Shown here piece after piece: positions 38,781-63,223 of a stretch of DNA of 64,000 nucleotides (the stretch's first letter is position 1; each line of letters starts with the position of its first letter). The translations under genes and the position numbers were made by a program. The DNA is from an uncultured Saprospiraceae bacterium (lineage in GTDB: Bacteria > Bacteroidota > Bacteroidia > Chitinophagales > Saprospiraceae). Location: positions 8,111 through 72,110 of the forward strand of contig CAZKBH010000020.1 of assembly GCA_964550795.1 (NCBI GenBank), written 5' to 3'. The notes below the pieces were generated by a model that had not been told where the DNA came from, searched no databases, and saw nothing but the letters and a program-made list of their open reading frames with translations.

Positions 38781-38842
38781 AACCAATCCCCACTCCATCA
38801 ATCACCAATCCCCAATCCACCAATCCCCAATCCACCAATCAC
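38781..38842. repeat. CCAAT-type simple repeat tract just upstream of the HMG-CoA synthase start
   Basis: accaatccccactccatcaatcaccaatccccaatccaccaatccccaatccaccaatcacc. Confidence 0.8.
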
Positions 38843-42178: not shown

Positions 42179-42180
42179 AG

Positions 42181-42219: not shown

Positions 42220-42246
42220 AGGTAATTGGACGAAATACAGGGAGGC

Positions 42247-43375: not shown

Positions 43376-43466
43376 CCGCCGCTTAAGGAAAGAGGGTATC
43401 AAAATTAAGTTTTGTTTACCCTTTCCAAAAAGGCTCAATTTGAAATTTTAAAGTACTTACGAGGTA

Positions 43467-44684: not shown

Positions 44685-44711
44685 CTTTTGACCTTTTAAT
44701 TTCCAGAGGAA

Positions 44712-45338: not shown

Positions 45339-45416
45339 TGGGTTGTTTGGAGCTTGGATGACTGGATTTTAAATCACCAGTTCCCAATCACCATCAAACC
45401 AATCACCATCAAAGTC

Positions 45417-45719
45417 ATGGCTAAGCAAATTTTGATAAAGCCCGTTATCACGGAAAAGTCTACCAAACTCGCGGATACGCGGGATACTTACTCCTTCGTG
45501 GTAAACAGAGGTGCGAATAAGATTGAAATCGGTGCTGCCGTTGAAAAAATGTTCAACGTTAGCGTAAAGCGGGTAAACACCGCGGTAATTCCGGGCAAAC
45601 CTAAATCGCGCAGTAGTAAAACAGCCATCGTCCGTGGCACGAAGTCCTCTTACAAAAAGGCTTTCGTAACACTTGCTCCAGGAGAAACGATTGATTTCTT
45701 CGGCGGCGACGAAAACTAA
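45417..45719 (+). CDS. rplW: 50S ribosomal protein L23
   Basis: 'ILIKPVITEKST' starts at internal ATG 45417. The upstream ORF extension is encoded by a simple repeat. Confidence 0.9.
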   Translation: MAKQILIKPVITEKSTKLADTRDTYSFVVNRGANKIEIGAAVEKMFNVSVKRVNTAVIPGKPKSRSSKTAIVRGTKSSYKKAFVTLAPGETIDFFGGDEN

Positions 45720-45799
45720 GAATGAACGAGTTAATGAGGGTCTTGGCCTATGCCTTTTTCCTCTCTATCACTGACAATACGCTAACGCTGACATAAGAA

Positions 45800-46624
45800 A
45801 TGGCAGTCAAGAAATTTAACCCGCTAACGCCAGGCCAACGCTTTCGCGTAGCGGTATCAAGAGACGAACTAACGAAGGGTGCAAAACCTGAACGCTCGCT
45901 GATGGCTTCTGCCAGCAGCAACGGAGGTCGTAACTCGGACGGTCGTCGTACCATGCGCTACCGTGGCGGTGGGCACAAGCGTCGCTATCGTATCATTGAT
46001 TTCAAACGCGACAAGCAAGGTGCTGCAACGGTAGAGTCTATTCAGTACGACCCTTTCCGCACTGCGTACATTGCACTCGTGGCCTATGCTGACGGTGAAA
46101 AAGCCTATGTTCTTGCCCCAAAAGGCTTGGAAGTTGGCACCACCATCGAATCAGGTCGCGGAGTTGCTCCGGAAACGGGCAACTGCCTTTATCTCGCAGA
46201 AGTACCCCTGGGTGCCATGATGCACAACATCGAAATGCAACCCGGACAGGGCGGTAAATTGGTGCGAAGCGCTGGTGTAGGAGCTGTGATGATGGGTCGT
46301 GAAGATCGTTTCGCAGTAGTCCGTATGCCATCCGGGGAAGTTCGGCGGATTTTGCTCACATGCCGTGCCACTATTGGTACCGTGGGCAATCCTGACCACA
46401 ACCTCGAAATCATGGGTAAAGCGGGTCGTAATCGTTGGAAAGGCCGTCGCCCACGTGTTCGTCCAGTAGTGATGAACCCAGTGGATCACCCAATGGGTGG
46501 TGGTGAAGGTCGCGCATCCGGTGGTCACCCACGTACCCGTAAAGGCTTCAAATCCAAAGGTGCTAAGACTCGGAGCAAAACAAAAGCTTCCAACGCGCTT
46601 ATCATCAGCCGCAAAACGAAGTAA
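45800..46624 (+). CDS. rplB: 50S ribosomal protein L2
   Basis: '[14 protein letters not shown]', '[15 protein letters not shown]', '[13 protein letters not shown]'. Confidence 0.97.
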
Positions 46625-46726
46625 ATTTTTTCTTGATCTGAAAAAGTGTTGGCTCGAAATTAGTAATGGAGTGCTTTCACAGTCAAGTCAACAAATCAAC
46701 TATATCAACGCATCAACAATAATTGT

Positions 46727-46993
46727 ATGCCGCGTTCACTGAAAAAAGGCCCTTACATCCATCACTCGTTGTTGGAAAAGGTAGAAAAAGCAAAACAGAG
46801 CAACCGCAAACAGGTAATCAAAACCTGGAGCCGCTCTTCGATGATTATCCCTACCATGGTAGGTGAAACCATCGCGGTACACAATGGCAAAACTTTTGTA
46901 CCGGTTTTAGTAACCGAGAACATGGTAGGTCACAAACTTGGGGAATTTTCGCCAACGCGTAACTTCCGTGGTCACGGTGGAAACAGGAAATAA
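46727..46993 (+). CDS. rpsS: 30S ribosomal protein S19
   Basis: '[10 protein letters not shown]', '[23 protein letters not shown]'. Confidence 0.97.
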
Positions 46994-46997
46994 TTGT

Positions 46998-47203
46998 TAA
47001 TGTGGTCAATGGGATTAATGTGGTCAATGAGATGAATGTGGCCAATGTGATCAATAAGATGAATGAGACCAATGTGGTCAATAAGATGAATATGGTCAAT
47101 GTGACCAATGTCGAACATCCGGAGATCATAAGCACATTGACCACATTAAACACATTGACCACATTACCTTCATTACCCACATTAAATACATTTTTACACA
47201 TTT
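46998..47203 (+). repeat. Intergenic hairpin element, ATGTGGTCAAT family, copy 1 (rpsS-rplV spacer)
   Basis: About 8 degenerate 'aatgtggtcaat' units are followed by their reverse complement 'cacattgaccacatt' x2-3. Confidence 0.9.
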
Positions 47204-47209
47204 AGTAAA

Positions 47210-47578
47210 ATGGAAGCAGTAGCAAAATTGAGAAACGTCCCGATGTCACCGCGCAAAATGCGCTTGGTAGTGGATAATATTCGCGGCAAAAAAGTAGTGG
47301 ATGCCCTTGGCATTCTCCGCTATACCAACAAAGAAGCCGCTATGTGGCTTGAGAAATTGGTGCTTTCTGCCGTCAGCAACTGGGAACAGAAATACGACCA
47401 GGTGGGTGGTGCGGATGAATTCGACCTCGTTATCAAAACAGCGTTCGTTGATCCAGGCACAATCATCTATCGTTTTCTTCCTGCGCCGCAAGGCCGCGCT
47501 TATCGCGTCCGCAAACGTCGCAATCACATTACCATCGTCGTCGAGAATCGCGTGGCGTTGGATAATGAAAAAGCTTAA
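47210..47578 (+). CDS. rplV: 50S ribosomal protein L22
   Basis: '[24 protein letters not shown]' and operon order. Confidence 0.95.
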
Positions 47579-47628
47579 ACCGCTCTGAAAATCACACATT
47601 CGTACCATCTTTCATTCAGTTAAGAATA

Positions 47629-48534
47629 ATGGGTCAAAAAGCAAATCCGATTGGTAACCGTCTTGGCATCATCCGTGGTTGGGATTCCAACTGGTACGCC
47701 GACAAAGATTACGGTCTCAAAGTAGTTGAGGATGAAAAAATCCGTACCTACCTTCGCGCTCGTCGTCCAAAAACGGCCACGGCAGATCCGCGTGATCGGA
47801 ACAAACCAGTGCAGAACGGCATCAGCCGTATTGCTATCGAGCGTACCATGCGCCGAGTTACCGTCACCATCCACACCAGCCGCCCAGGTATCATCATTGG
47901 CAAAGGTGGCAAGGAAGTTGACCTGATCAAAGAAGAATTAAAAGTCCTCACTGGCAAAGAAGTTCAAATCAATATTTTTGAAATTCGCAAACCAGAGTTG
48001 GATGCAAATATTGTCGGCGAACAAATCGCTAAACAAATCGAAGCCCGGATCAACTACCGTCGTGCAATCAAAGGTGCCATTCAAGGTACCATGCGTGCCG
48101 GCGGCGAAGGAATCAAGGTCCGCATTAGCGGTCGTGTGGGCGGTGCCGAGATTGCGCGTTCTGAAGAATACAAGGAAGGGCGTACGCCACTCCATACTTT
48201 CCGCGCCGACATTGATTACGCATTGGTAGAAGCTCAAACGGTGTACGGTAAAATCGGCATCAAAGTGTGGCTCTTCAAAGGCGAAGTACTCCAAAAACGT
48301 GAACTTACGCCGTTCGCAGCAGCAGAAGGAACCGGTGGAGATCGCCGCGATGATCGTCGTGACGACCGTGGAGGCAGAGGAGGAGATGACCGCAGAGGTG
48401 GTGGTGGAGATCGCAGAGGTGGTGGCGGTGGTGACCGCAACAGAGGTGGCGGCGGTGGCGGCGGAGATCGCAGAGGCGGTGGCGGCGGTGGTGGTGACCG
48501 CAGAGGCGGCGGTGGTGGCGGAGGTCGCCGATAA
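47629..48534 (+). CDS. rpsC: 30S ribosomal protein S3 with a roughly 65-aa Gly/Arg/Asp-rich C-terminal tail
   Basis: '[23 protein letters not shown]', a KH domain, and 'GRIGGAEIAR'-type '[12 protein letters not shown]'. The tail is '[33 protein letters not shown]...'. Confidence 0.95.
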
Positions 48535-48621
48535 GTAAAAGACATTTGGCAGTAAGTATCTATAAGTTGCTGCCATCCATTCACAAACATTGATTGACAG
48601 GCTTTCTAAATCATTCAGACG

Positions 48622-49041
48622 ATGTTACAGCCCAAGCGTCAGAAATATCGCAAACAGCACAAAGGCCGCAACCGTGGCTTGGCTTTTAAAGGCAGTTCAA
48701 TTTCCTTCGGATCTTTCGCATTGAAATCCCTGGAATTCGGACGCTTAACGAGCCGCCAAATTGAGGCAGCACGTATCGCGCTCACTCGTAACATGAAACG
48801 TGAGGGTAAAGTGTGGATCCGTGTATTCCCAGACAAACCACTTACTTCTAAGCCCGCTGAGGTGCGTATGGGTAAAGGTAAAGGTGCCGTTGACCACTAT
48901 GTTGCAGAAGTGCAGCCAGGTCGTATCATCTTTGAAATTGAAGGGGTTAGCCCTGAAATTGCACTTGCTTCGCTTCGTTTGGGGGCTCAAAAACTCCCAA
49001 TGCTTTGCAAGACCGTGACACGCCACGATTACGAAGGATAA
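48622..49041 (+). CDS. rplP: 50S ribosomal protein L16
   Basis: '[16 protein letters not shown]', '[12 protein letters not shown]'. Confidence 0.97.
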
Positions 49042-49140
49042 ATGATCAATGTGGTCAATGTGGAAAATAAGACCAATATGGTCAATTTTTCCACAGCTTG
49101 AAAAGACCACTTTGACCAAATTGACAACATTAGCACATTA
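49042..49140 (+). repeat. Intergenic hairpin element, ATGTGGTCAAT family, copy 2 (rplP-rpmC spacer)
   Basis: atcaatgtggtcaatgtgg...ccactttgaccaaattgacaacatt. Confidence 0.8.
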
Positions 49141-49146
49141 AATACA

Positions 49147-49407
49147 ATGGCAAAGGAAAAATTGAACCTCGTTGATATGAATGATGACGAACTGCGCAGT
49201 CAACTTGCCAGTGCAGAACAAGAGTATCAGCAATTGAAGTTCGACCATGCGGCTAAAGGCATTGCCAATCCCATGGAAATTCGTGAGCTGCGACGCAATG
49301 TTGCCCGCATTCTTACGGAAGGTCGTCGTCGCGAAATCGCTGCAATGAGTCCTGATGAACTCGCAACGCGTACCAAACTTCGCGCCCGCCGCCGCAGAAC
49401 ACGTTAA
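49147..49407 (+). CDS. rpmC: 50S ribosomal protein L29 (with basic C-terminal extension)
   Basis: 'LRSQLASAEQEYQQLKFDHA', 'IRELRRNVARILT', and operon order. Confidence 0.9.
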   Translation: MAKEKLNLVDMNDDELRSQLASAEQEYQQLKFDHAAKGIANPMEIRELRRNVARILTEGRRREIAAMSPDELATRTKLRARRRRTR

Positions 49408-49484
49408 GTACCGAAAGCGACCCAATTGGATCGTTCAGACGACTTAACCTTATTAACAAAGTTGAACTAATTACATCTCGATAG

Positions 49485-49748
49485 ATGGAAGCAGTAGTAA
49501 GAAAACTTCGCAAAACAAAAACAGGGGTAGTGGTTTCCACCAAAATGGATAAAACCATCTCTGTAAAGGTCGAACGCCGACTGATGCACCCGCTTTACGG
49601 TAAATTCGTAAAACGCTCCAATAAATTCTTCGCACACGACGAAGAGAATACCTGTAATGCAGGTGATTTGGTGCGCATCATGGAAACCCGCCCGCTCAGT
49701 AAAATGAAACGCTGGCGCCTGGTAGAAGTCCTTGAAAGAGCGAAATGA
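49485..49748 (+). CDS. rpsQ: 30S ribosomal protein S17
   Basis: '[19 protein letters not shown]...HPLYGK', 'KFFAHDE.N....GD.V.I.E.RPLSK.K.W'. Confidence 0.95.
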
Positions 49749-49751
49749 TTT

Positions 49752-49803
49752 CTAGTTATGAGTTACAGTTAACTCATACTCATAACTCATAACTCATAAC
49801 TTA
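49752..49803 (+). repeat. Intergenic hairpin of ACTCATA/TATGAGT simple repeats (rpsQ-rplN spacer)
   Basis: agttatgagttacagttaactcatactcataactcataactcataact. Confidence 0.8.
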
Positions 49804-49811
49804 ATAAAGTC

Positions 49812-50180
49812 ATGATTCAGCAAGAGTCCCGTTTGAATGTGGCCGATAACTCCGGCGCGAAAGAAGTGCTTTGTATTCGTGTGCTGGGCCACACCCGCCA
49901 ACGCTACGCAGGTGTTGGTGACAAGATTGTGGTGACCGTGAAGGATGCTACCTCCAGTGGTGGTATCAAAAAAGGCACTGTTTCTAAAGCCGTCATCGTA
50001 CGTACCCGTAAAGAAATCCGCCGTAAAGACGGTTCCTATATTCGTTTCGACGATAACGCGGTAGTACTCCTCAATGCTTCCGACGAACCACGCGGAACCC
50101 GTATTTTCGGCCCAGTGGCACGTGAACTTCGCGATAAGGATTACATGCGTATCGTGTCACTTGCACCAGAAGTACTTTAA
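49812..50180 (+). CDS. rplN: 50S ribosomal protein L14
   Basis: '[24 protein letters not shown]'. Confidence 0.97.
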
Positions 50181-50368
50181 AATGTGTGAAAATGTGGTCA
50201 ATGAGATAAATGTGGTCAATGTGAAAAATGTGGTCAATGAGATAAATGTGGTCAAAGTGCCATCATCTCAGCAAAAATGACTCATTAACCACATTAGCAA
50301 ATCAACCACATTGACCACATTAACCACATTGACCACATTAGTAATTAGCAATTTAGCACATTCAATAA
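50181..50368 (+). repeat. Intergenic hairpin element, ATGTGGTCAAT family, copy 3 (rplN-rplX spacer)
   Basis: Four 'aaatgtggtcaa(t/a)g' units, a loop, then 'aaccacattgaccacatt' x2-3. Confidence 0.9.
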
Positions 50369-50369
50369 A

Positions 50370-50717
50370 ATGGCTACGAAGAAAAATACAGTTAAACGCT
50401 TTGCCCCAAAACTTCACGTCCGTAAGGGCGATAAAGTGGTTGTCATTTCTGGCGACGACAAAGGAAAGACGGGCGATGTGCTACAAGTTTTCCCGGATAA
50501 AAACCGCGCAATCGTGGAAGGTATCCGAATCGTGAAAAAGCACGTAAAAGCAACCCAAACGGAATCTGGTGGCATTCAGGAAATGGAAGCAAGTATTCAT
50601 CTTTCCAACCTTGCCCACCTAGATCCAAAAAGCGGCGAAGCAACGCGCATTGGCCGTCGTGAAGAAAACGGTGTGCGCGTACGCTATTCTAAAAAATCTG
50701 GTAACGTCATCAAGTAA
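50370..50717 (+). CDS. rplX: 50S ribosomal protein L24
   Basis: '[25 protein letters not shown]' is a KOW motif. Confidence 0.95.
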
Positions 50718-51268
50718 TGAACTACGTACCTCGTCTCAAGACAAAATATCAGAAGGAAGTGGCTCCTGTACTCATGCAGCAGTTCAACTACTCCTCTGTG
50801 ATGCAAGTACCACGCATCGAAAAAGTGTGTATCAACCAAGGCATCGGTGCTGCTACTGGTGATAAGAAATTAGTGGACAATGCTGCCACTGAGCTCTCTA
50901 TCATCGTAGGCCAGAAAGCGGTTTCCACAAAGGCAAAGAAGTCGGTTTCGAACTTCAAACTCCGCGAGGGGATGCCAATTGGAGTACGGGTAACGCTGCG
51001 CGGTGATCGGATGTATGAATTTCTGGATCGTTTCCTGAACATCTCCCTCCCACGCGTTCGCGACTTCCGCGGTGTGAACGATAAGTCTTTCGATGGACAT
51101 GGTAACTACACAATGGGTATCACGGAACAGATCATATTTCCAGAAATTGACATCGAAAAGGTGAGCAAAATCATGGGTATGGACATTACCATCGTAACGA
51201 CTGCCAAAACGGATGCGGAGGCTTATGCCTTGCTGAAGGAAATTGGAATGCCGTTCGTAAAAAAATAA
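50717..51268 (+). CDS. rplE: 50S ribosomal protein L5
   Basis: 'PRLK..Y..EV...L...F.Y.SVMQVPR..K...N.G', 'FRGV....FDG.GNY..G..EQ..FPEI'. Confidence 0.97.
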
Positions 51269-51301
51269 CTCAGAATCTCATTTTCAACGACATAAAGCAA
51301 T

Positions 51302-51571
51302 ATGGCAAAGAAATCCGTCATTGCCCGCGAAAATAAGCGCAAACGCATGGTAGCCAAGTACGCTGAGCTTCGCAAGAAACTCAAAGAGGCTGGAGACTAT
51401 GATGCGCTCGACAAACTCCCGCGCAACTCAAATCCTATCCGCTTGCACAACCGTTGCTTGCTGACAGGCCGTCCGAAAGGCTACATGCGTAAGTTCGGCA
51501 TCTGCCGTGTCAAATTCCGCGAAATGGCTTTGTTCGGCAAAATTCCAGGTGTAACTAAAGCCTCCTGGTAA
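51302..51571 (+). CDS. rpsN: 30S ribosomal protein S14
   Basis: 'MAKKS.IARE.KR......Y...R..LK', 'R..NRC..TGRP.GY.RKFG.CR..FRE.A..G..PGV.KASW'. Confidence 0.95.
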
Positions 51572-51676
51572 TAAATGTTGTTCGCCGGCAGTGTTTCATT
51601 CAAGGTCTGAATTACAAACAACGCCTTCAAAATCGAGCAACCAACAACCAACAACTATCAACTATTTTTTGATAAA

Positions 51677-52087
51677 ATGCACGTCACCGACCCGATAGCA
51701 GACTATCTCACCCGCATCCGCAATGCGCAAATGGCGGGGCATCGCATCGTCGAGATTCCGGCATCGCGCATCAAGAAATCCATGACGGAAATCTTGTACG
51801 ATCAGGGGTATATTCTCAAGTACACCTTTGAAGAAAAAACGCCGGAGAACAAGCAGGGTCTAATCAAAATCGCCCTGAAGTACGATACGGTAACCAAAAA
51901 ACCGGTCATCCGCGAACTTGTCCGTGTAAGCCGTCCAGGCCTGCGCAAGTTTTCCGGTGCCGGCGATATTCCACGCATCATCAATGGCTTGGGTATCATG
52001 ATTGTGTCCACGTCCAAAGGGGTGATGACCGACAAAAATGCCCGCGACCTCAATGTAGGTGGTGAGCTGCTTTGCTACATAAGTTGA
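51677..52087 (+). CDS. rpsH: 30S ribosomal protein S8
   Basis: 'TDPIADYLTRIRNA', 'GLGIMIVSTSKGVMTDK.AR...VGGE.LCY'. Confidence 0.97.
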   Translation: MHVTDPIADYLTRIRNAQMAGHRIVEIPASRIKKSMTEILYDQGYILKYTFEEKTPENKQGLIKIALKYDTVTKKPVIRELVRVSRPGLRKFSGAGDIPRIINGLGIMIVSTSKGVMTDKNARDLNVGGELLCYIS

Positions 52088-52175
52088 TGAAGGTTGATTA
52101 AAAGTTTATGAGCGTGAGATAATCTCCCATAAACCATCATCAACCCTCATGAACCTTTATCAACAATTAATAAAG
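52084..52175 (+). repeat. Imperfect hairpin of GATGA/TCATC-rich repeats (rpsH-rplF spacer)
   Basis: ttgatgaaggttgattaaaagtttatgag...cccataaaccatcatcaaccctcatgaacctttatcaac. Confidence 0.6.
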
Positions 52176-52188
52176 AACACACTGCGAT

Positions 52189-52749
52189 ATGTCACGCATT
52201 GGAAAATTGCCGATAAGCCTTCCTGCTAAAGTGGAAATCACGGTTGCAACCGATAACACGGTCACCGTGAAAGGCCCCAAAGGCTCGCTTAGCCAAAAGG
52301 TTGACCCTGATATCACGGTTAGCGTCGAAGATGGTACACTCACCGTGAATCGTCCAACCGATCAGAAGCGCCACCGCTCTATGCACGGCCTTTACCGCGC
52401 CCTCATCCACAACATGGTTGTTGGGGTAAGTGAAGGGTACACTCGGGAGATGGAAGTCATCGGGGTAGGTTTTCGTGTGGAAAACCAAGGCAACCTTGTT
52501 ACCTTTACCATTGGTTACTCTCACCCGGTAATCTTTTACGTTCCTTCCGAAATCAAAGTGACCACCGCCATGGAAAAAGGCCAGGCGCCACTCATTCGTT
52601 TGGAAGGGATTGATAAGGAATTGCTTGGACAAGTTTGCGCTAAAATGCGCGGCTTCCGTAAGCCAGAGCCTTACAAAGGAAAGGGTATCATGTTCAAAGG
52701 CGAACAGATTCGTCGCAAAGCGGGCAAAACCGCTGGTGGCAAGAAATAA
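52189..52749 (+). CDS. rplF: 50S ribosomal protein L6
   Basis: 'MSRIGK.PI..P..V......N.V.VKGPKG.L', 'EPYKGKGI'. Confidence 0.97.
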   Translation: MSRIGKLPISLPAKVEITVATDNTVTVKGPKGSLSQKVDPDITVSVEDGTLTVNRPTDQKRHRSMHGLYRALIHNMVVGVSEGYTREMEVIGVGFRVENQGNLVTFTIGYSHPVIFYVPSEIKVTTAMEKGQAPLIRLEGIDKELLGQVCAKMRGFRKPEPYKGKGIMFKGEQIRRKAGKTAGGKK

Positions 52750-52755
52750 ACTGGT

Positions 52756-52840
52756 CGATGGTGATTGGTATATTGGGGATTGGTGGAAACAAATTACCAC
52801 TCCACCGATTAACAAATCACCAATATACCAATCACCAACA
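52756..52840 (+). repeat. Intergenic hairpin of ATTGG/CCAAT-type repeats (rplF-rplR spacer)
   Basis: ggtgattggtatattggggattggtgg...ccaccgattaacaaatcaccaatataccaatcacc. Confidence 0.85.
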
Positions 52841-52895
52841 ACAAATCAATGCCTTCCCGGTCAGTAATCGGGATCGCCTTAATTGATATTAAAAT

Positions 52896-53237
52896 ATGAA
52901 ACGCACAAAAGAGCAAAGTCGTAAACGCATTCACATGCGTGTCCGCAAAAAAGTAAATGGTACGGCAGAGCGCCCACGTCTAAGTGTTTACCGCTCCAAC
53001 AAAGCAATTTACTGCCAGGTAATCAACGATTTGGCTGGACAGACCTTGGCTTCGGCTACTTCTTTGGGAATGACTGGTAACAATGTTACACAAGCTACTG
53101 AGGTTGGCAAATTGATTGCTGAACGCGCAAAAGCAGCAGGTATTCAAAGTGTGGTTTTTGACCGCGGTGGATATCTTTATCACGGCCGAGTAAAGGCCTT
53201 GGCTGATGGTGCTCGTGAAGGAGGTCTTCAATTCTAA
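52896..53237 (+). CDS. rplR: 50S ribosomal protein L18
   Basis: '[29 protein letters not shown]', '[26 protein letters not shown]'. Confidence 0.97.
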
Positions 53238-53324
53238 AATGGTTATTCGAGGGTTTGTTGATTCGGTTTTATGAATGACCTTATCCACAAATCACCAAAT
53301 CCACAAATAAACAAGCTTAGCAAA

Positions 53325-53852
53325 ATGGCAAGGCAAGAAAGAGAAAAAGAAGTTTCTCGCACCAGCGAGGAATCCGGTCTCAAAGAAAAACTCGTATCGC
53401 TCAACCGCGTAGCTAAGGTTACGAAAGGTGGTCGTACGTTCACCTTCGCTGCAGTTGTAGTGGTAGGGGATGGCAAAGGCACCATCGGTCAGGGGCTTGG
53501 CAAAGCTCGCGAGGTTTCCGAAGCTATTTCCAAAGCTGTGAAAGACGCGGAAAAAAATCTCGTGAAAGTGCCTATTCTGAACGGTACTATCCCGCACGAA
53601 GCGTACGGCAAGTTTGATGCCGGACGTGTACTCATCAAGCCTGCTGCACACGGAACAGGTGTGATCGCGGGTGGAGCTATGCGCGCGGTGTTGGAGTCAG
53701 TAGGTGTTCACGACTGTCTGGCCAAATCACAGGGTTCTGCCAATCCGCACAACGTTGTGAAAGCTACCATCGCAGCACTTGCAAGCCTTCGCAGCCCTTC
53801 TGAAGTGGCGCGTCAGCGTGGCATTTCGATGGAAAAACTCTTCAAAGGATAA
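53325..53852 (+). CDS. rpsE: 30S ribosomal protein S5
   Basis: Internal ATG 53325. '[35 protein letters not shown]'. Confidence 0.93.
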
Positions 53853-53924
53853 TACGTTGTTTGAACTTTGGCGCAACATTTGTTTGCGTCGAATACCAAA
53901 CGGCGCTCAACGAATACCTAAACA

Positions 53925-54104
53925 ATGAGCAAAGTAAACATCACGCTGCTGAGAAGCCCTATTGACAAGCCAAAGCGTCAAAAGCTTACCCTCACGGCAC
54001 TAGGCTTTCGCAAAATGAACCAAACTGTTCAACACGAAGCTACCCCCCAAATTGAAGGGATGCTCCGCGTGGTAGCACATTTGGTTAAAGTCGAAAATGC
54101 CTAA
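53925..54104 (+). CDS. rpmD: 50S ribosomal protein L30 (59 aa, below the ORF-track cutoff)
   Basis: Hand translation gives MSKVNITLLRSPIDKPKRQKLTLTALGFRKMNQTVQHEATPQIEGMLRVVAHLVKVENA*. The gene lies between rpsE and rplO. Confidence 0.9.
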   Translation: MSKVNITLLRSPIDKPKRQKLTLTALGFRKMNQTVQHEATPQIEGMLRVVAHLVKVENA

Positions 54105-54184
54105 GCATTTTCAACACAAGTAATTGAAATTCAATACAAATCTTGTGGCACTTCTTGGGTGCTGCATTGAAATAAAGATAAGCA

Positions 54185-54631
54185 ATGGATCTCTCTAATC
54201 TCCGTCCGGCAGAAGGTGCTACCAAAAATGGTAAACGCATCGGTCGTGGCACAGGTTCTGGCCGCGGCGGCACTTCTACCCGTGGTCACAAAGGCGACAA
54301 GGCCCGTAGCGGTGCAAAGCAAAAGCGTCACTTTGAAGGTGGCCAAACGCCTATGCAGCGTCGTTTGCCTAAGCGTGGCTTCAAGAACGTGAACCGCGTG
54401 GAGTTTGTGCCCCTTAATCTGGGTGCATTGGAAGCTCTGGTTCAAAAGACTGGCGTCAATACGTTTGATGTCGCTTCATTGGTTGCTGCTGGCGTTTCTC
54501 GTGCTTCTGACAAAATCAAAGTATTGGGAACTGGCAAGTTGGCCTCCAAAGTTACCATTAAAGTGCACGCAGCCTCGGCATCTGCCAAAGCAGCCATCGA
54601 AGCTCTCGGTGGTAGCATCGAACTCGTTTAA
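54185..54631 (+). CDS. rplO: 50S ribosomal protein L15
   Basis: 'L.NL.PAEGA.KN.KR.GRG.GSG.GGTS.RGHKG...RSG', 'FEGGQ.P...RLPKRGF'. Confidence 0.97.
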   Translation: MDLSNLRPAEGATKNGKRIGRGTGSGRGGTSTRGHKGDKARSGAKQKRHFEGGQTPMQRRLPKRGFKNVNRVEFVPLNLGALEALVQKTGVNTFDVASLVAAGVSRASDKIKVLGTGKLASKVTIKVHAASASAKAAIEALGGSIELV

Positions 54632-54645
54632 ATCTACTCCCGGTA

Positions 54646-56010
54646 ATGAAATTTTTTACCGTACTTAAAAATATCTGGAGCATCAAGGAGCTCCGCGAGC
54701 GCATTCTCTTCACGCTTGCTCTCTTGTTGATTTACCGCGTTGGTACGTTCATCGTATTGCCAGGGGTGGTGCCTGCTGCGCTCGACAAAGCAGCCCAAAA
54801 CCGCGGCGGTAATGACCTGCTCGGGTTGATCAACATCTTTACGGGTGGCGCTTTTGACAATGCCGCGATTTTTGCCTTGGGGGTAATGCCCTACATTACG
54901 GCATCCATCATTGTGCAGTTGTTGGGCTTCGCTGTGCCGTATTTCCAGCGCCTGCAAACTAAAGAAGGTGAAAGTGGTCGTAAACGTTTGAACCAAATCA
55001 CCCGACTGCTTACCGTAGCGATTTCTTTGGTTCAAGGCGGAGGTTACTTGCAACTTATGCGCAGTACTCCAGGGGCTGTTTCTCCGGATGTACCGGAAGG
55101 GTTGTTCTGGTTCGCTAATATCGTTATTCTGACTGCAGGTACAATCTTCTGTATGTGGCTTGGCGAACGGATTACAGATAAAGGGATCGGCAACGGGGTT
55201 TCTTTGATTATCATGTCTGGTATCATCGCACGACTGCCTTACGCATTCTCCTTTGAATTTGTAAAACTTTTCGGCGAGAACAAACTGTTGCTTTTCTTCG
55301 TAGAGTTGGCCTTCTTCTTTGTGATTGTCCTGGCTACTATTTTGGTCATACAGGGTGTCCGACGAATACCGATTCAGTTTGCCAAAAGAATGGTTGGCCG
55401 CACAGGTGGCACCATGCCACAGGCGAGTGCACGGGATTATCTTCCATTAAAAATCAACTCGGCTGGGGTTATGCCGATCATCTTTGCGCAAGCATTGATG
55501 TTCCTGCCTGCCACCGCCATGCAATATTTTTCAGACTCAGGTGCCACTGGTGGCGGTATTCCAATGTTTAGTGACATCTACTCTTTTGGGTACAATGCAC
55601 TGTTCTTTACCCTCATCGTAGTGTTCACGTATGTTTACACGGCCCTGATGATCAACCCTACCAACTACGCGGAGTACTTAAAGCGCAACAACGCCTTTAT
55701 ACCCGGTATAAAACCTGGGGAAGCTACTTCGGAGTACATTGACAACATCATGACACGCATCACACTCCCGGGCTCTATTTTCTTGGGTTTGTTGGGTATC
55801 CTGCCTTCGATTGCTGCAACCATGGGTGTCAACCAACAGTTCGCACTGTTCTTCGGCGGAACCACACTTCTTATCATGGTAGGGGTTGCACTCGATACAC
55901 TCCAGGTAATTGAAAGTTACCTTTTGACAAAAAAATACGATGGTCTGATCAAATCAGGCCGCATTCAAGGCCGCTCATCTTCGGGTATCCAAGTTGGTCA
56001 GCCTCAATAA
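54646..56010 (+). CDS. secY: Preprotein translocase subunit SecY
   Basis: 'LR.RILFTL.LL..YR.G..I.LPG', 'GV.PYI.ASII.QLL', 'GISLII..GI', and ten hydrophobic segments. Confidence 0.97.
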   Translation: MKFFTVLKNIWSIKELRERILFTLALLLIYRVGTFIVLPGVVPAALDKAAQNRGGNDLLGLINIFTGGAFDNAAIFALGVMPYITASIIVQLLGFAVPYFQRLQTKEGESGRKRLNQITRLLTVAISLVQGGGYLQLMRSTPGAVSPDVPEGLFWFANIVILTAGTIFCMWLGERITDKGIGNGVSLIIMSGIIARLPYAFSFEFVKLFGENKLLLFFVELAFFFVIVLATILVIQGVRRIPIQFAKRMVGRTGGTMPQASARDYLPLKINSAGVMPIIFAQALMFLPATAMQYFSDSGATGGGIPMFSDIYSFGYNALFFTLIVVFTYVYTALMINPTNYAEYLKRNNAFIPGIKPGEATSEYIDNIMTRITLPGSIFLGLLGILPSIAATMGVNQQFALFFGGTTLLIMVGVALDTLQVIESYLLTKKYDGLIKSGRIQGRSSSGIQVGQPQ

Positions 56011-56013
56011 ATT

Positions 56014-56868
56014 ATGGGCTTATTCGCTACAGCCAACGATGGCAAGCGGCTTTTTTATAAAACTGCCGTAGAGATTGAATTGATGCGGAATGCAAATTTG
56101 GTTGTTTCAAAAGCCTTGGCACACGTCGCCGGGATGTTGAAACCAGGGATTACCGGTGCAGAGATTGATAAAGCGGCAGAAGAATTCATCCGGGATCATG
56201 GTGGCCGACCAGCATTTAAAGGGTACGGCTCCCCTGAAAATCCATTTCCAGGATCTCTTTGTGTTTCTTACAATGATATCGTGGTGCATGGGATCCCAAG
56301 TAAAAGAGAATTTAAAGAAGATGATATTGTTTCGGTGGATTGTGGGGTAGAATTAGAAGGGTTTTATGGGGATGCAGCATTCACTTTTGCTTTTCAAAAA
56401 GTAGCCGAACCCACCATGGAATTGCTTCGAGTTACGTACGCTTCACTTTATCTGGGCATCGAACAAGCCATCCATGGAAAAAGAATCGGGGATATTTCTT
56501 CAGCGATTCAAGAGTACTGCGAACGGAAACATGGATACGGGGTGGTACGAGATTTAGTAGGGCATGGCGTAGGACGTTCCTTGCATGAAGACCCGGAAGT
56601 ACCCAACTATGGAAAGCGAGGCAAAGGCCCACTAATCATGGAAGGTTTGGCCCTGGCGATAGAACCAATGGTCAATTTAGGAAAAAAAGATGTGCTCCAA
56701 ACAGAAGACGGATGGACCATTCATACCCGCGACAGATCACCCAGTGCACACTATGAACATTCAGTTGTAGTGAAAAAAGGTAAGGCTGACATACTCTCTG
56801 ACCATACCTATTTACTGGAAGAAATAAAAAATAACCCTAACTTGCAGGAAATCCAACCTAAAAGTTAG
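56014..56868 (+). CDS. map: Type I methionine aminopeptidase
   Basis: 'P.FKGY......FP.SLC.S.N..VVHGIP', 'D.V..D.G......YGD.A.TF', 'VRD..GHG.G...HE.P.V.NY', 'LAIEPM'. Confidence 0.93.
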   Translation: MGLFATANDGKRLFYKTAVEIELMRNANLVVSKALAHVAGMLKPGITGAEIDKAAEEFIRDHGGRPAFKGYGSPENPFPGSLCVSYNDIVVHGIPSKREFKEDDIVSVDCGVELEGFYGDAAFTFAFQKVAEPTMELLRVTYASLYLGIEQAIHGKRIGDISSAIQEYCERKHGYGVVRDLVGHGVGRSLHEDPEVPNYGKRGKGPLIMEGLALAIEPMVNLGKKDVLQTEDGWTIHTRDRSPSAHYEHSVVVKKGKADILSDHTYLLEEIKNNPNLQEIQPKS

Positions 56869-56904
56869 ACATTTGCACCCCGAAATCCAAAGAGGCCGAT
56901 TTTT

Positions 56905-57123
56905 ATGGCAAAAGAAGATATTATCAAACAAGATGGCGTGGTTTCCGAAGCCCTTTCCAACGCGAACTTCAAAGTTCAACTGGAAAATGGCCACGTAATC
57001 TTAGCGACCATCTCAGGCAAAATGCGGATGCACTACATCCGGATTCTGCCAGGCGACAAAGTCTCTGTCGAGATGTCGCCATACGACCTGACAAGAGGGC
57101 GCATCATTTACCGCTACAAGTAA
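56905..57123 (+). CDS. infA: Translation initiation factor IF-1
   Basis: '[24 protein letters not shown]...[33 protein letters not shown]'. Confidence 0.97.
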
Positions 57124-57179
57124 CTTGTTGATTGACAAGTTCTTAAATTACTTTTTGCAAACCGACAACTCGTCACGAT

Positions 57180-57296
57180 ATGAAAGTCAGACCGTCCATC
57201 AAAAAGCGTTCTGTTGATTGCAAGATTGTTCGCCGGAAAGGCAAACTCTACGTCATCAACAAAAAGAACCCTAAATTCAAACAACGTCAAGGCTAA
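57180..57296 (+). CDS. rpmJ: 50S ribosomal protein L36 (38 aa, below the ORF-track cutoff)
   Basis: Hand translation gives [38 protein letters not shown]. Confidence 0.92.
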
Positions 57297-57372
57297 TTGG
57301 CTGCTGGTTTGATCATCGGTAGGTATAGCCCACCAAAATCGAATCATCTGTTCAACAAATCAACAAAGAAAT

Positions 57373-57750
57373 ATGGCACGTATTGCAGGTGTGGATTTGC
57401 CCCGCCACAAAAGAGGAATTATCAGCCTCACCTATATTTACGGCATTGGGCCGTCTTCCGCAAAAGCTATCCTTGAAAAGGCTGGCATTAGCGAAGATAC
57501 CAAGACCGAAGAATGGACGGATGACAACATCAAAGTCATTTCTCGGGTGCTTGCCGACGAATACAAGACGGAAGGCCAACTTCGTAGTGAGGTTCAATTG
57601 AACATCAAACGTTTGATGGACATCGGCTGCTATCGCGGACTCCGTCACCGTAAAGGATTACCACTTCGTGGCCAACGTACCCGTACCAACGCCCGTACTC
57701 GTAAGGGTAAGCGTAAGACGGTAGCCGGCAAGAAGAAAGTAACGAAGTAA
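57373..57750 (+). CDS. rpsM: 30S ribosomal protein S13
   Basis: '[22 protein letters not shown]', '[22 protein letters not shown]'. Confidence 0.97.
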
Positions 57751-57751
57751 T

Positions 57752-57915
57752 TTGTTTAATGTGGTCAATAAAGCAATGTGGTCAATGTGTTTAATCTGGT
57801 CAATGTGTTTGGCCTTATCACATTGACCACATTAAACACATTGACCACATTCAAAATTGCCCACATTGACCACATTCGAAAATTGACCACATTAATTCTG
57901 ACCACATTCTCATAC
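57752..57915 (+). repeat. Intergenic hairpin element, ATGTGGTCAAT family, copy 4 (rpsM-rpsK spacer)
   Basis: taatgtggtcaat / gcaatgtggtcaatgtg / taatctggtcaatgtg, then cacattgaccacatt x4-5. Confidence 0.9.
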
Positions 57916-57916
57916 A

Positions 57917-58309
57917 ATGGCAAAAGGAGCAGCAAAAAAGGTTGTTAAGCGGAAAGTGAAGATTACCCCTGAGGGAATCGTTTTTATCCAGGCCAGCTTT
58001 AACAACATCATTATTTCCATCACCAACAAGCAAGGTGAGGTAGTGTCTTGGGCATCTGCTGGTAAAGCAGGTTTCCGCGGCTCAAAGAAAAACACCCCTT
58101 ATGCAGCGCAAGTTGCCGCGAGTGATGCTGCTAAAACAGCACATGAAGCTGGCATTCGTTCCGCAGAGGTGTTTGTGAAAGGCCCAGGCTCCGGTCGTGA
58201 ATCTGCCATCCGTGCTATTGACCAATCTGGCATTAAAGTACTCGTTATCAACGACGTAACTCCAATGCCGCATAACGGGTGCCGCCCTCCAAAGCGCCGC
58301 CGCGTATAA
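57917..58309 (+). CDS. rpsK: 30S ribosomal protein S11
   Basis: 'G...I.ASFNN..ISIT...G.V..W.SAG..GF.GSKK.TP.AAQ.AA', 'D.TP.PHNGCRP.K.RRV'. Confidence 0.97.
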
Positions 58310-58458
58310 TTGAATGTGGTCAATGAGATCAATGTGGTCAATGTGCCACATTAACCACATTAACCACATTGGCCACATTAACCAAATTGGCCACATTGAC
58401 CACATTGGCCACATTAACCAAATTGGCCACATTCATTAAATTGACCACATTAGAATAA
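58310..58458 (+). repeat. Intergenic hairpin element, ATGTGGTCAAT family, copy 5 (rpsK-rpsD spacer)
   Basis: The short left arm (gaatgtggtcaatgagatcaatgtggtcaatgtg) is followed by a long array of about 10 units of 'ccacatt(a/g)(a/g)cc'. Confidence 0.9.
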
Positions 58459-58459
58459 G

Positions 58460-59074
58460 ATGGCTCGTTATACTGGACCAACCACAAAAAAAGCCCGCTC
58501 GTTCGGCGAACCAATTTTTGGTTTTGACAAAGCGTTCGAACGCCGCAAATACGGGCCAGGCCAGCACGGCCTGACGCGCAAAAAAAAGCAGCCTTCCAAC
58601 TATGCAGGGCAGCTTAAAGAAAAGCAAAAAGCAAAATACACTTACGGTGTTTTGGAGCGTCAGTTCCGTAAAACCTTTGTAAGCGCAACCCGTCGTCACG
58701 GGGTTACAGGCGAGGTTTTGCTTCAACTTTTGGAAGCTCGCTTGGACAACACGGTGTACCGTCTGGGGATTTCCCCAACCCGCCGTGGTGCCCGCCAATT
58801 GGTTGGTCACCGCCACGTAACCGTTAATGGCAAAGTGGTGAATATTCCTTCTTACTCATGCAAACCAGGGGATGTTATCTCTGTGCGCGGTAAATCGAAA
58901 GGTTTGGAAATCGTAACGACGCATGTTGGCGCTAAAACCAACAATGTACGTCAGTTCGGTTGGCTTGAGTGGAACGTTGATAAGATGCAAGGTGTGTTCC
59001 TTGCGTACCCACAACGCGATCAGATTCCAGAAAATATCAACGAACAGTTGATCGTCGAGTTGTACTCGAAATAA
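58460..59074 (+). CDS. rpsD: 30S ribosomal protein S4
   Basis: 'MARYTGP..K..R..G', 'QLLE.RLDN.VYR.G....R..ARQLV.H.H..VNG..VNIPSY'. Confidence 0.97.
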
Positions 59075-59199
59075 TACACAGCAAACTCGGAACGGTTGGC
59101 CTTCTTTTGGAGGGCCAACCATTTTCGCGTTTCCCCCCTTACCTCTGCCGTCGAAAACAAACTAGTTTTTCCCACCAACACTCTCGGAGCATTCCACAT

Positions 59200-60198
59200 A
59201 TGAGTATTCTCAATTTCCAGAAGCCTGACAAAATCCTGTTGCAAAAAGCAACTGAGTTTGAAGGCACTTTCGAGTTCAAACCATTGGAGCCGGGTTTCGG
59301 TCAAACGGTTGGCAACTCGCTTCGCCGCGTTCTCCTCTCCTCACTCGAAGGCTATGCCATCAACGCCGTGCGCATTGGTGGTGTTGACCATGAGTTTGCG
59401 ACGATTAAGGGTGTGGTTGAAGACGTGGTGGACATTGTGCTTAACCTCAAGCAAGTGCGTATCAAACCTGTGGTTCAAGACGAAAAGAACACACAGGAGA
59501 AAATCTACCTCACCATCAGTGGTAAGGAAGAGTTTCGCGCCAGCGACATCGAGGATTTTACCAACGTGTTCAAAATCATGAATCCCGATCTCCTGCTTTG
59601 CCGCATGGAGCCATCGGTTACGCTTGAACTTGAGCTTACGATCAGCAAAGGCCGTGGTTATCAGCCCGCTGAAGACGGCGCACCAAAGGATGCAGCAATC
59701 GGGGTAATTCCAATTGATGCCATCTACACGCCCATCAAAAACGTCGCCTACCGTGTAGAAAGCACCCGTGTAGGTCAACGTACGGACTACGAAAAACTCA
59801 CCATTGACATCAGAACGGACGGAACCATCCATCCAGAAGATGCGATCCGGGAGGCAAGCAGAATCCTGATCCAGCATTTGATGCTGATTACGGACGAAAA
59901 TATTACTTTCGATACCCCAACAAATCGGGAAGAAAGTGTAGTGGACGAGCATATCCTCCACATGCGCAAATTGCTCAAAACTTCTCTCGAAGACCTGGAT
60001 CTCAGCGTTCGTGCATACAACTGCCTCAAGGCCGCCAAAATCAACACTTTGGCCGAATTGGTGCGCTACGATACCCATGAACTCCTCAAATTCCGCAATT
60101 TCGGTAAGAAATCGTTGGTAGAAATCGAGGAGCTGCTGCAAGACAAAAATCTGACCTTCGGCATGGACCTGGCGAAGTATAAGTTGGACGAAGAATAG
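59200..60198 (+). CDS. rpoA: DNA-directed RNA polymerase alpha subunit
   Basis: Internal ATG 59200 gives 332 aa. 'GNSLRRVLLSSLEGYAI', and the C-terminal domain 'LDLSVRAYNCLKAAKINTL.ELV......L.K.RNFGKKSL.EI'. Confidence 0.95.
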   Translation: MSILNFQKPDKILLQKATEFEGTFEFKPLEPGFGQTVGNSLRRVLLSSLEGYAINAVRIGGVDHEFATIKGVVEDVVDIVLNLKQVRIKPVVQDEKNTQEKIYLTISGKEEFRASDIEDFTNVFKIMNPDLLLCRMEPSVTLELELTISKGRGYQPAEDGAPKDAAIGVIPIDAIYTPIKNVAYRVESTRVGQRTDYEKLTIDIRTDGTIHPEDAIREASRILIQHLMLITDENITFDTPTNREESVVDEHILHMRKLLKTSLEDLDLSVRAYNCLKAAKINTLAELVRYDTHELLKFRNFGKKSLVEIEELLQDKNLTFGMDLAKYKLDEE

Positions 60199-60202
60199 TT
60201 AT

Positions 60203-60382
<180 letters not shown>

Positions 60383-60433
60383 AATTCCCCCTCTTGCTCC
60401 GGTGCCGCCACCTAAACAAAAGGTACTCTTTCA

Positions 60434-61093: not shown

Positions 61094-61125
61094 GCACGCG
61101 CCCAACAGCGCGCTTGAAATACAAA

Positions 61126-61158
61126 GGCGACACCCCTAAACCGGGTGTCGCCTTTTTT
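61126..61158 (+). terminator. Rho-independent terminator at the end of the ribosomal super-operon
   Basis: ggcgacaccc-ctaaacc-gggtgtcgcc, followed by TTTTTT. Confidence 0.85.
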
Positions 61159-61330
61159 GCAATATGTAAAATAATAGCGTAATCCCATATTTAACATACC
61201 GGGTTAGAAAAATCAAAAACTTATCAATATTTTTGCTAATTATTTGTAGTCCAGGCCTGGACAATGAATAGAAAAACGTACTCAATTTTTCATCTCTAAA
61301 TCATTTTTATTATGAAACAATCCTTTCAAA

Positions 61331-63223
<1,893 letters not shown>

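Follow-up and report, generated by a model that had tools for sequence, protein, structure and literature searches.

The ribosomal protein (r-protein) operon of an uncultured Saprospiraceae bacterium raises the question of why so many of its genes are separated by long spacers made of short tandem repeats, and what kind of repeat this is. The operon lies in a stretch of 64,000 nucleotides (nt) of contig CAZKBH010000020.1 (assembly GCA_964550795.1, positions 8,111 to 72,110), here called the window, and a first-pass annotation, made from the letters of the stretch, had described five of its spacers as filled by a family of hairpin-forming elements. Comparison with related genomes indicates that these five spacers are one case of a short-tandem-repeat family widespread in Saprospirales. 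The repeat is neither a discrete mobile element nor a conserved structured RNA, and it is no terminator either. The explanation that we favour, with moderate confidence, is that the spacers hold slippage arrays like those known as STRR and LSSR, shaped by translation that does without Shine-Dalgarno (SD) sites, and we infer that their function would be to fold the extra spacer RNA away.

Tandem arrays in the spacers of the operon

The five spacers are at the places given by the first-pass annotation. With flanking genes defined by open reading frames (ORFs) and Pfam, they are rpsS-rplV (46994-47209, between S19 and L22), rplP-rpmC (49042-49146, L16 and L29), rplN-rplX (50181-50369, L14 and L24), rpsM-rpsK (57751-57916, S13 and S11) and rpsK-rpsD (58310-58459, S11 and S4). 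Altogether the stretch from rplC to rpsD contains about 2.0 kb of spacer over 24 gaps. In the window there are 60 occurrences of the motif GTGGTCAAT with no more than one mismatch, compared to 15.0 +/- 4.0 in dinucleotide shuffles (maximum 24), and nearly all of this surplus is inside the five spacers. Both Tandem Repeats Finder (TRF) and an inverted-repeat search find in each of them a direct array followed by an inverted array, as had been proposed. The unit is however shorter than the 12 nt or so first suggested: the period is 9 nt (AATGTGGTC), and the earlier 11-12-mer spans a unit boundary. Each unit consists of an AATGTG core plus three variable nucleotides, the core of the 3' arm being CACAUU. 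TRF gives a period of 9, with an 18-nt super-period in several arrays and 3.7-12.6 copies, and for the first part of each spacer its consensus is AATGTGGTC, for the second CCACATTGA/CACATTGAC. We refer to the stop-proximal arrays as G-form and to the start-proximal inverted arrays as C-form:

46999..47111, + strand: rpsS-rplV G-form (stop-proximal) array, about 12.6 units AATGTGGTC/AATGAGATN, 5 nt past the rpsS stop (TRF)
47129..47192, + strand: rpsS-rplV C-form (start-proximal) inverted array, about 6.3 units NNCCACATT, followed by a 17-nt linker and the rplV ATG at 47210
49042..49086, + strand: rplP-rpmC G-form array, degenerate, about 5 units, abutting the stop codon
49107..49139, + strand: rplP-rpmC degenerate C-form arm, CCACTTTGACCAAATTGACAACATTAGCACATT
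50185..50259, + strand: rplN-rplX G-form array, 18-nt super-period AATGTGGTCAATGAGATA, 91% matches
50283..50340, + strand: rplN-rplX C-form array, AACCACATT and GACCACATT alternating, the variants not mirroring the 5' arm
57758..57810, + strand: rpsM-rpsK G-form array, about 5.7 units, 7 nt past the stop
57819..57908, + strand: rpsM-rpsK C-form array, about 8.7 units plus trailing CTGACCACATT
58313..58345, + strand: rpsK-rpsD G-form array, 3.7 units, 3 nt past the stop
58346..58452, + strand: rpsK-rpsD C-form array, 11.8 units GACCACATT/GGCCACATT/AACCAAATT, ending 8 nt before the rpsD ATG

The spacers had been thought completely occupied, but the arrays begin 0-7 nt past the stop and finish 8-29 nt ahead of the start; the nucleotides that remain before the start form an A-rich linker, and all five have A at position -3. 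The GTGGTCAAT arm is indeed always 5' with respect to transcription. Since an inverted pair is identical on both strands, this is a matter of arrangement and not of strand, and the real asymmetry is whether the G-form or the C-form comes first.

The inverted arms are 18-60 nt long with 72-97% complementarity; those of rpsS-rplV are 53 nt and 81% complementary, and the inner 33-nt arms of rpsM-rpsK reach 97%. In rpsK-rpsD the C-form adjoins the G-form with no loop, at a perfect inversion AATGTG-C-CACATT. The long imperfect stem-loops expected in the polycistronic mRNA are recovered in the predicted folds of all five spacers, with minimum free energies of -68.3, -29.5, -62.7, -64.8 and -50.2 kcal/mol in the order above. 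Against dinucleotide shuffles these correspond to z of -4.8, -5.0, -8.1, -9.6 and -6.3, and none of 200 shuffles reaches the real value. Loop sequences and ends differ among all five, total lengths range over 105-216 nt and arms over 33-113 nt, and no target duplication and no conserved ends or loop are visible in the five copies. The proposed family of discrete 100-210-nt elements is thus better described as a set of 9-nt arrays of variable copy number.

A 67-codon ORF with a GTG start (47002-47205) spans the rpsS-rplV spacer without interruption, its stop lying 4 nt ahead of the rplV ATG. It probably follows incidentally from a 9-nt unit that has no stop codons in that frame, and it does not recur consistently in the other spacers. 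A relay of small ORFs as a general feature was considered and rejected, as elsewhere the frames are closed by 7-nt units and by TGA or TAA in the C-form.

The five spacers are therefore real, but they are not special: at least six further spacers of the operon share the layout using other units of 7-10 nt. They are rpsQ-rplN, rpsH-rplF, rplF-rplR and rpoA-rplQ, and more weakly rplD-rplW and rpsN-rpsH; a single array lies outside the operon.

49754..49801, + strand: rpsQ-rplN, AGTTATGAGTTA then (TAACTCA) x 4.7, ending 10 nt before rplN; z -4.4
52088..52164, + strand: rpsH-rplF, GTTGATGAAGGTTGAT... then (CATCAACCAT) x 3.7; z -3.2
52754..52848, + strand: rplF-rplR, (TGGTGAT) x 3.7 then an inverted CCAATCACC array; z -7.0
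60205..60286, + strand: rpoA-rplQ, perfect (AATGATG) x 4.4, loop, perfect (ATTCATC) x 5.4; z -8.5
60349..60379, + strand: rpoA-rplQ third array, second (ATTCATC) x 4.4, 54 nt upstream of rplQ
38782..38840, + strand: single C-form array outside the r-protein operon, about 8 copies of CCAATCC/CCAATCA, stopping 12 nt short of the start of ORF 38853-40229

In rpoA-rplQ the AATGATG array could pair with either of the two identical ATTCATC arrays (60249-60286 or 60349-60379), an arrangement that resembles an attenuator-type switch.

Stop/start composition and turnover in relatives

One rule common to the different unit families concerns the composition of the arrays relative to the neighbouring genes. 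Loci of relatives were collected by a metagenome scan with RpsK, which gave 80 loci, and the r-proteins of the window were mapped onto them by tblastn. In the r-protein spacers of the clade, arrays were divided into early (in the first third of the spacer, 24 arrays) and late (in the second half, 42 arrays). The early arrays are G+T-rich in 19 of 24 cases, with a median G content of 0.25 and a median start 4 nt past the stop codon, compared to A+C-rich in 39 of 42, a median G content of 0.04 and a median end 10 nt ahead of the start codon for the late ones (Fisher p = 3e-9). In an independent set of non-ribosomal loci from metagenome-assembled genomes (MAGs) of Saprospiraceae, 27 of 32 start-adjacent arrays have G<C and 24 of 29 stop-adjacent arrays have G>C (p = 1.3e-7), and the rule persists in these loci when the AATGTGGTC family is left out (16/19 and 17/22). 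The keto-rich (G+T-rich) arm is 5' in 16 of the 18 well-scoring inverted pairs (p = 0.001), and in both data sets the median distance of C-form arrays to the start is 8-10 nt. The recurrence of the rule in two data sets implies at least purifying selection on the orientation of the arrays. Bacteroidota are generally G-poor in the last 30 nt before starts (0.10-0.12), which agrees with the description of initiation in Bacteroidetes as making no use of SD sequences and being tuned by structure and by upstream adenines (PMC6847099).

Elsewhere in the window, a perfect (CA)18.5 run (61349-61385) is followed, 12 nt further downstream, by a probable start at 61398 (MLLFLQCLVGNAQD..., resembling a signal peptide). 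It forms a G-free leader, consistent with the C-form rule, and is a possible slippage-prone switch; were the ATG at 61331 the start instead, the run would encode (HT)n.

Spacer length and array content both fall away with distance from the window:

Mean r-protein identity at least 84%: median spacer 78 nt, 35% of spacers with a TRF array
Mean r-protein identity 66-84%: median spacer 76 nt, 19% of spacers with a TRF array
Mean r-protein identity 62.5-66%: median spacer 34 nt, 6% of spacers with a TRF array
Mean r-protein identity below 62.5% (56 loci, 669 spacers): median spacer 11 nt, 1% with a TRF array

The expectation that such spacers are normally short is borne out by the last group, which consists of other Bacteroidota. 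In the 67%-identity metagenome contig Ga0209185_1000382 (L182), r-protein spacers of 288, 305, 351, 539 and 894 nt hold several different 6-9-nt arrays.

The closest sequences show how the arrays change. A 2.9-kb contig of MAG GCA_030652485.1 (L001) and run SRR26965757 (L002) encode an L22 protein identical to that of the window; their coding DNA is nearly identical and their proteins are 99-100% identical. Their rpsS-rplV spacer is 197 nt long compared to 216 in the window, owing to an indel of about 18 nt and a few substitutions, located in the arrays, and the other four spacers of the L001 contig are equal in length to those of the window. An indel of about 18 nt confined to an array-bearing spacer between near-identical strains is as slippage predicts. 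At greater distances, L121 (93% identity), L069 (90%) and L123 (85%) retain the AATGTGGTC family with differing copy numbers in rplP-rpmC, rplN-rplX, rpsM-rpsK or rpsK-rpsD, and L121 also has the TAACTCA unit in its orthologous rpsQ-rplN spacer. L122 (85%) keeps the layout with other units, namely GGGATAATG/CATTATCCC, GGTTACAAGG/CCTTGTAACC (-88.6 kcal/mol), GAATTATAA/TTCATAA, GTTGATAAAA/TTATCAAC and CCCATTAT, and has an orthologous version of the rpsH-rplF unit. The comparisons partly show that arrays grow and shrink by replication slippage in steps of 9 or 18 nt, with the two arms changing independently, and units are lost or replaced between species. Because units and their presence differ between orthologous spacers, it is the architecture that is conserved in the lineage, and not the sequence or the presence at each site. 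Pairs of arrays with the G-form first and the C-form second, built from diverse units of 7-10 nt, make up most long intercistronic spacers of the clade, a lineage-wide habit.

The 9-mer itself is spread well beyond this operon. An exact 15-mer scan of species-representative genomes (596 Gb) found at least 118 stretches; about 1,000 chance matches are expected, so that most singleton matches are noise. Among the matches listed, about 27 are titled Saprospiraceae, Saprospirales or Lewinellaceae (here and below, taxonomic labels are those of the record titles), and arrays of at least three near-exact units come almost solely from those taxa and from unclassified Bacteroidota MAGs. In all, 9-mer arrays are present in at least about 25 MAG loci of Saprospiraceae, Lewinellaceae or Saprospirales. 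Exceptions with perfect AATGTGGTC arrays are one MAG named 'Paenibacillus alvei' and one named 'Thermoanaerobaculia' (L015 7830-7865; L042 2235-2345; L077 7021-7112). These contigs are probably mis-binned Saprospiraceae; were the binning correct, they would be evidence of horizontal spread of the arrays.

In relatives (Saprospiraceae and Lewinellaceae MAGs and related metagenome contigs) the 9-mer again occupies rpsM-rpsK and rpsK-rpsD, and it is also found in atpA-atpG (L102, probably L064), rpsB-tsf (L067), rplK-rplA (L013) and parA-parB (L111), on both sides of secA (L101), in a pair of genes for an ABC ATPase and an alkaline phosphatase, and at a gene upstream of ribH. A targeting of the ribosomal operon alone is therefore too narrow, and the arrays are not limited to housekeeping genes either: they also lie beside FG-GAP and type IX secretion system genes and TonB-receptor genes. 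In about 20 of the 24 contexts the two flanking genes are co-directional. Single C-form arrays occur 0-13 nt upstream of starts (L035, L039, L045, L074, L082, L098, L101), and single G-form arrays just past stops (L077, L101, L109, L116). Short-period arrays in general, most frequently with periods of 7 and 9, amount to 32 per 100 kb in Saprospiraceae-type loci compared to 4.5 per 100 kb elsewhere, in a sample that is biased.

The 18-mer is found on 8 viral contigs, with at most 4.5 copies each, and on these numbers spread by phages was rejected. On two of the viral contigs (IMG/VR), L205 (about 7830-7860) and L208 (5198-5240), 3-4.5 tandem AATGTGGTC units lie beside a tRNA-like GGTTCGAxTCCC; these may be Saprospiraceae phages or prophages with the array near the attachment site.

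Explanations for the arrays

How slippage arrays shaped by SD-less translation would come to have this form can be set out as follows. Initiation without an SD sequence would need an unstructured, G-poor and A-rich leader, and therefore only the C-form would be tolerated beside the start. The G-form on the stop side would pair with it, so that the extra 100-200 nt fold as one long imperfect hairpin and the gap from stop to start shrinks to about 15-35 unpaired nt. This would keep the hand-over of ribosomes between cistrons workable, and would hide a long untranslated tract, C-rich and G-poor, from RNases and Rho. Rho and single-strand RNases prefer untranslated RNA of that composition. It is plausible that the inverted copies originated by template switching at the arrays, which the loop-less junction AATGTG-C-CACATT of rpsK-rpsD fits.

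Several observations weigh against this explanation. The recurrence of the same 9-mer with a conserved core across loci and genera is not explained by slippage and tolerance. In the 386 units collected from all loci, the information content is 1.1-1.6 bits at positions 1-6 (AATGTG) but falls to 0.4-0.8 bits at positions 7-9; a conserved hexamer that recurs across genera points to a sequence-specific factor or to a copying mechanism. Signs that the pairing itself is selected are also missing. Arms from the same spacer score 27.4 compared to 28.7 for arms from different spacers, which is no excess, and a comparison scored blind to wobble pairs gives 32 mismatches of G.U type in the sense RNA and 35 of A.C type, which would be G.U in the antisense RNA only, no signal, with 89 transversions dominating. 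Copy numbers of the arms are unbalanced (12.6 v 6.3, 5.7 v 8.7, 3.7 v 11.8) and the variants of one arm have no mirror image in the other: the alternating variant in rplN-rplX is AATGAGATA in the 5' arm and AACCACATT in the 3' arm. With a ribosome on the stop codon the accessibility of the start hardly alters in the model, the unpaired probability over -20..-1 being 0.41-0.63 in the five spacers and 0.43-0.67 with the ribosome in place, so that classical coupling by RNA unfolding is weakly supported. The rpsM-rpsK spacer of L123 is just 25 nt long and resembles the 3' end of the array in the window; arrays are dispensable at individual sites. Finally, the comparison loci were chosen by repeat or by RpsK, are mostly MAG or metagenome contigs, and have genes defined by crude ORF calls.

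On the sense strand, G-to-A losses among the 386 units tend to occur in both arms. CATT, a motif that could have been shared across unit families, is not enriched. Among the non-9-mer units of Saprospir-like loci, unrelated families show a modest enrichment of two tetramers, TCAT occurring 13 times (4.2 +/- 1.9 in letter-shuffled units) and ATCA 17 times (7.3 +/- 2.3).

Two candidates were rejected. A conserved structured RNA is not compatible with the lack of compensatory or wobble maintenance of base pairs. No T-run lies behind any large hairpin, as an intrinsic terminator would require, and terminators or promoters in the spacers are at shuffle expectation (26 terminator-like sites in 43000-61500, compared to 23.5 +/- 4.6 in shuffles).

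In one alternative the arrays would be (CCACAUUGA)n and (AAUGUGGUC)n repeats of RNA or DNA offering CACAUU/AAUGUG every 9 nt to a sequence-specific factor of S1, Csp or KH type, or to a small RNA, that would regulate the translation or stability of many operons. The difference in bits between the hexamer and the last three positions is as expected of such binding arrays, as are the retention of one 9-mer across several genera while single arrays turn over, and the position of the C-form, single arms included, 0-13 nt upstream of starts; a similar binding role has been proposed for the TAACTGA repeats of Beggiatoaceae (PMC4679880). We nevertheless consider it unlikely, because orthologous spacers of relatives have unrelated units or no arrays, at least five other unit families share the layout within the operon, no candidate factor was identified, and the uneven conservation could stem from subfamily structure instead of selection. 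Slightly less likely is a selfish mobile hairpin resembling a REPIN or MITE, one of the roles put forward initially, in which a transposase, such as a RAYT-type Y1 enzyme, would disperse a short inverted seed that slippage then expands, the location in operon spacers merely reflecting tolerance of insertion. The presence of the family at many unlinked loci in several genera, the excess of inverted pairs over single arms, the perfect loop-less inversion at rpsK-rpsD and the few copies on viral contigs would all suit it. However, termini and loop are not conserved, the five loops all being different, and there is no target-site duplication; the unit is non-palindromic with freely variable copy number; single-arm arrays follow the same orientation rule relative to stops and starts; and no transposase gene lies beside any array in the 64-kb window or in the 8-20-kb loci. 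Many unrelated units build the same architecture, which a REP/MITE-like reading fits poorly.

The remaining alternatives concern what the hairpin does, if anything. If it masked the downstream start, and the ribosome finishing on the gene before melted the base of the stem and so turned on the next cistron, the output of r-proteins would be kept equal without SD sites. Such coupling is established elsewhere, for example in rpmI-rplT with a +52-nt spacing (PMC12548453), and here the G-form begins a median of 3-4 nt past the stop, within the footprint of the ribosome that terminates there. In the model, clear gains in the accessibility of -20..-1 are limited to rpsK-rpsD (0.41 to 0.58) and rpsQ-rplN (0.35 to 0.63); in most spacers about half of the last 20 nt are unpaired to begin with, and the effect of the ribosome is at most 0.05. 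Between the major stem and the start 7-28 nt are left, the stems have no covariation, and relatives have no arrays at the same sites, all of which makes coupling by unfolding improbable in our view. We give a similarly low probability to elements for RNA processing or stability, that is to RNase III sites or barriers to 3' exonucleases that would divide the transcript into pieces decaying at different rates. In other bacteria such roles are played by REP elements and by hairpins between cistrons, stability is among the roles proposed for the cyanobacterial STRR hairpins, and the predicted duplexes are long and imperfect (-50 to -89 kcal/mol) and lie inside co-transcribed units without the U-tracts of terminators. 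But in several spacers, rplN-rplX among them, the stems are interrupted at 9-nt intervals, their presence is not conserved site by site, and neither the single-arm arrays nor the composition rule would be explained. Lastly, the arrays could be a neutral by-product of replication or repair prone to slippage, with incidental hairpins that have no effect on the RNA. Rapid turnover and strain polymorphism, arms that do not co-evolve and the raised array density (from the biased sample) are all what neutrality predicts; the composition rule, strong in two data sets, the conserved hexamer core and a number of inverted pairs that exceeds expectation from independent seeding are not, and there is little chance that neutrality is the whole explanation.

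Known systems, other features and significance

The first-pass annotation did not recognise the repeat as a described family, and nor do we: Rfam, ribosomal-protein leaders included, gives no match at gathering thresholds across the whole window, and a literature search found neither the repeat sequence nor any description of Saprospirales repeats. One of the two closest published parallels, neither of which the first-pass annotation named, is the STRR (short tandemly repeated repetitive) sequences of cyanobacteria, 7-bp units that form a hairpin in the hupS-hupL intergenic region of Nostoc/Anabaena, which has been proposed to stabilise the transcript or to couple translation (PMC2670836). As with the STRR, short units are tandemly repeated, the intergenic RNA is predicted to fold as a hairpin between co-transcribed genes, and there are many genome-wide copies within one lineage. 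STRR are 7-bp units of other sequences in filamentous cyanobacteria, whereas the main unit here is 9 nt long and belongs to Saprospirales (the closest genomes are Saprospiraceae or Saprospirales MAGs, and both the gene order and the lack of SD sequences in the leaders are characteristic of Bacteroidota), although units of 7 nt do occur in other spacers of the window (TAACTCA, ATTCATC, TGGTGAT). Compared to STRR, many consecutive spacers of a ribosomal operon are filled here, and the relation of G-form to stop and C-form to start is demonstrated.

A second parallel is provided by the direct TAACTGA repeats known from Beggiatoaceae, cyanobacteria and five Bacteroidetes, found just upstream of starts, including in r-protein operons (MacGregor 2015, PMC4679880). 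Both sets have forward arrays a few nucleotides before starts that lack canonical ribosome-binding sites, and both have a sporadic, lineage-specific distribution. The TAACTCA unit of rpsQ-rplN (x 4.7, 49770-49801) differs from TAACTGA by one base, but there is no tandem TAACTGA in the window, and the TAACTGA sets are direct repeats, with one indirect set reported, whereas here most arrays are inverted, hairpin-forming pairs and the main unit is a 9-mer. The LSSR (long simple sequence repeats) are defined as tandem arrays of 5-11-nt units, longer than chance, abundant in particular lineages and attributed to polymerase slippage (Mrazek et al. 2007, as summarised in PMC4679880). With a unit of at most 11 nt, 3.7-12.6 copies and 60 occurrences against 15 +/- 4, the present arrays belong to that class. 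As summarised there it is a statistical class with no architecture, and the paired inversion and the relation to stops and starts lie outside that description.

The REP/BIME and REPIN sequences of proteobacteria are extragenic hairpins in operons, present in hundreds per genome, that affect mRNA stability and, near stops, translation. The arrays share with them the extragenic inverted repeats forming hairpins in operons. REPs, however, are imperfect palindromes of fixed length (20-40 nt) associated with RAYT transposases, compared to a non-palindromic 9-mer repeated many times in arms of 33-113 nt, a use of many unrelated units, and no known link to a transposase. Nor do the arrays resemble a MITE, which has terminal inverted repeats round a conserved core, a target-site duplication and near-constant length, as their ends and loops differ and they measure 105-216 nt. 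In the RNA-unfolding coupling of E. coli rpmI-rplT, a unique conserved structure masks the SD site (review PMC12548453). The arrays share with it an intercistronic structure whose 5' side is within reach of the ribosome terminating upstream, but their stems are built from repeats and are not conserved, and the start region is largely open in silico. The arrays thus belong to a lineage-wide habit, apparently undescribed, that resembles the cyanobacterial repeat hairpins.

Some other features of the window deserve mention. The rpsD-rpoA spacer has a unique hairpin (59088-59128, GGAACGGTTGGCC...GGCCAACCATTTTCGC) that is kept in all close relatives (L121, L122, L069), where the sequences of the upper stem and loop vary with pairing retained; TTTTCGC follows the stem, and it could be an attenuator or terminator or a regulatory site. 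Two near-identical long terminator-like hairpins (26703-26770 and 32395-32460, TTTTTTTCTAAAAATAATGCCCGCC...GGCGGGTGTTATTTTTG) lie downstream of different genes and form a second, REP-like intergenic family unrelated to the 9-mer arrays. Between convergent genes at 40247-40374 there is an inverted repeat with 62-nt arms, the spacer folding at -90.9 kcal/mol, and between two minus-strand genes at 41889-42246 a structure of about 230 nt at -142 kcal/mol. The rpsC gene (47629-48534) encodes an S3 of 301 aa with a C-terminal Gly/Arg/Asp low-complexity tail (GGDR/RGG-like), unusual for bacterial S3, which is coded at 48300-48531 by degenerate tandem repeats of 21-57 nt.

On the furthest-reaching view, repeats would organise the polycistronic mRNA of Saprospirales in general, without SD sites: the G-poor array ahead of each start would be a tunable landing pad for ribosomes, the complementary array on the stop side would zip up the spacer, so that terminating ribosomes pass over the base of the hairpin in a shunt-like re-initiation, and mask the C-rich tract from Rho and RNases, a dedicated trans factor would read CACAUU, and slippage in copy number would act as a fast evolutionary dial for the output of neighbouring cistrons relative to each other. 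We regard this wider picture as unlikely.

Few gene arrays of bacteria are as compact and conserved as the r-protein operons, and here such an operon carries about 2 kb of repeat-rich spacer, as a trait of the lineage. For the initiation of internal cistrons in Bacteroidota, which do without SD sequences, the rule that arrays are G-rich at stops and G-poor at starts offers a handle at the level of sequence, helping to ask which leaders ribosomes tolerate and whether hairpins aid hand-over or shield untranslated RNA. There are practical consequences too. The arrays break short-read assemblies, the closest MAG having the locus on a 2.9-kb contig, and since they differ between near-identical strains they could be used as strain markers for Saprospiraceae. 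These bacteria are abundant in wastewater plants and lakes. Even if the arrays should prove to have little function, they would add a new phylum to the range of the STRR/LSSR phenomenon, in a new form, that of inverted nonamers.

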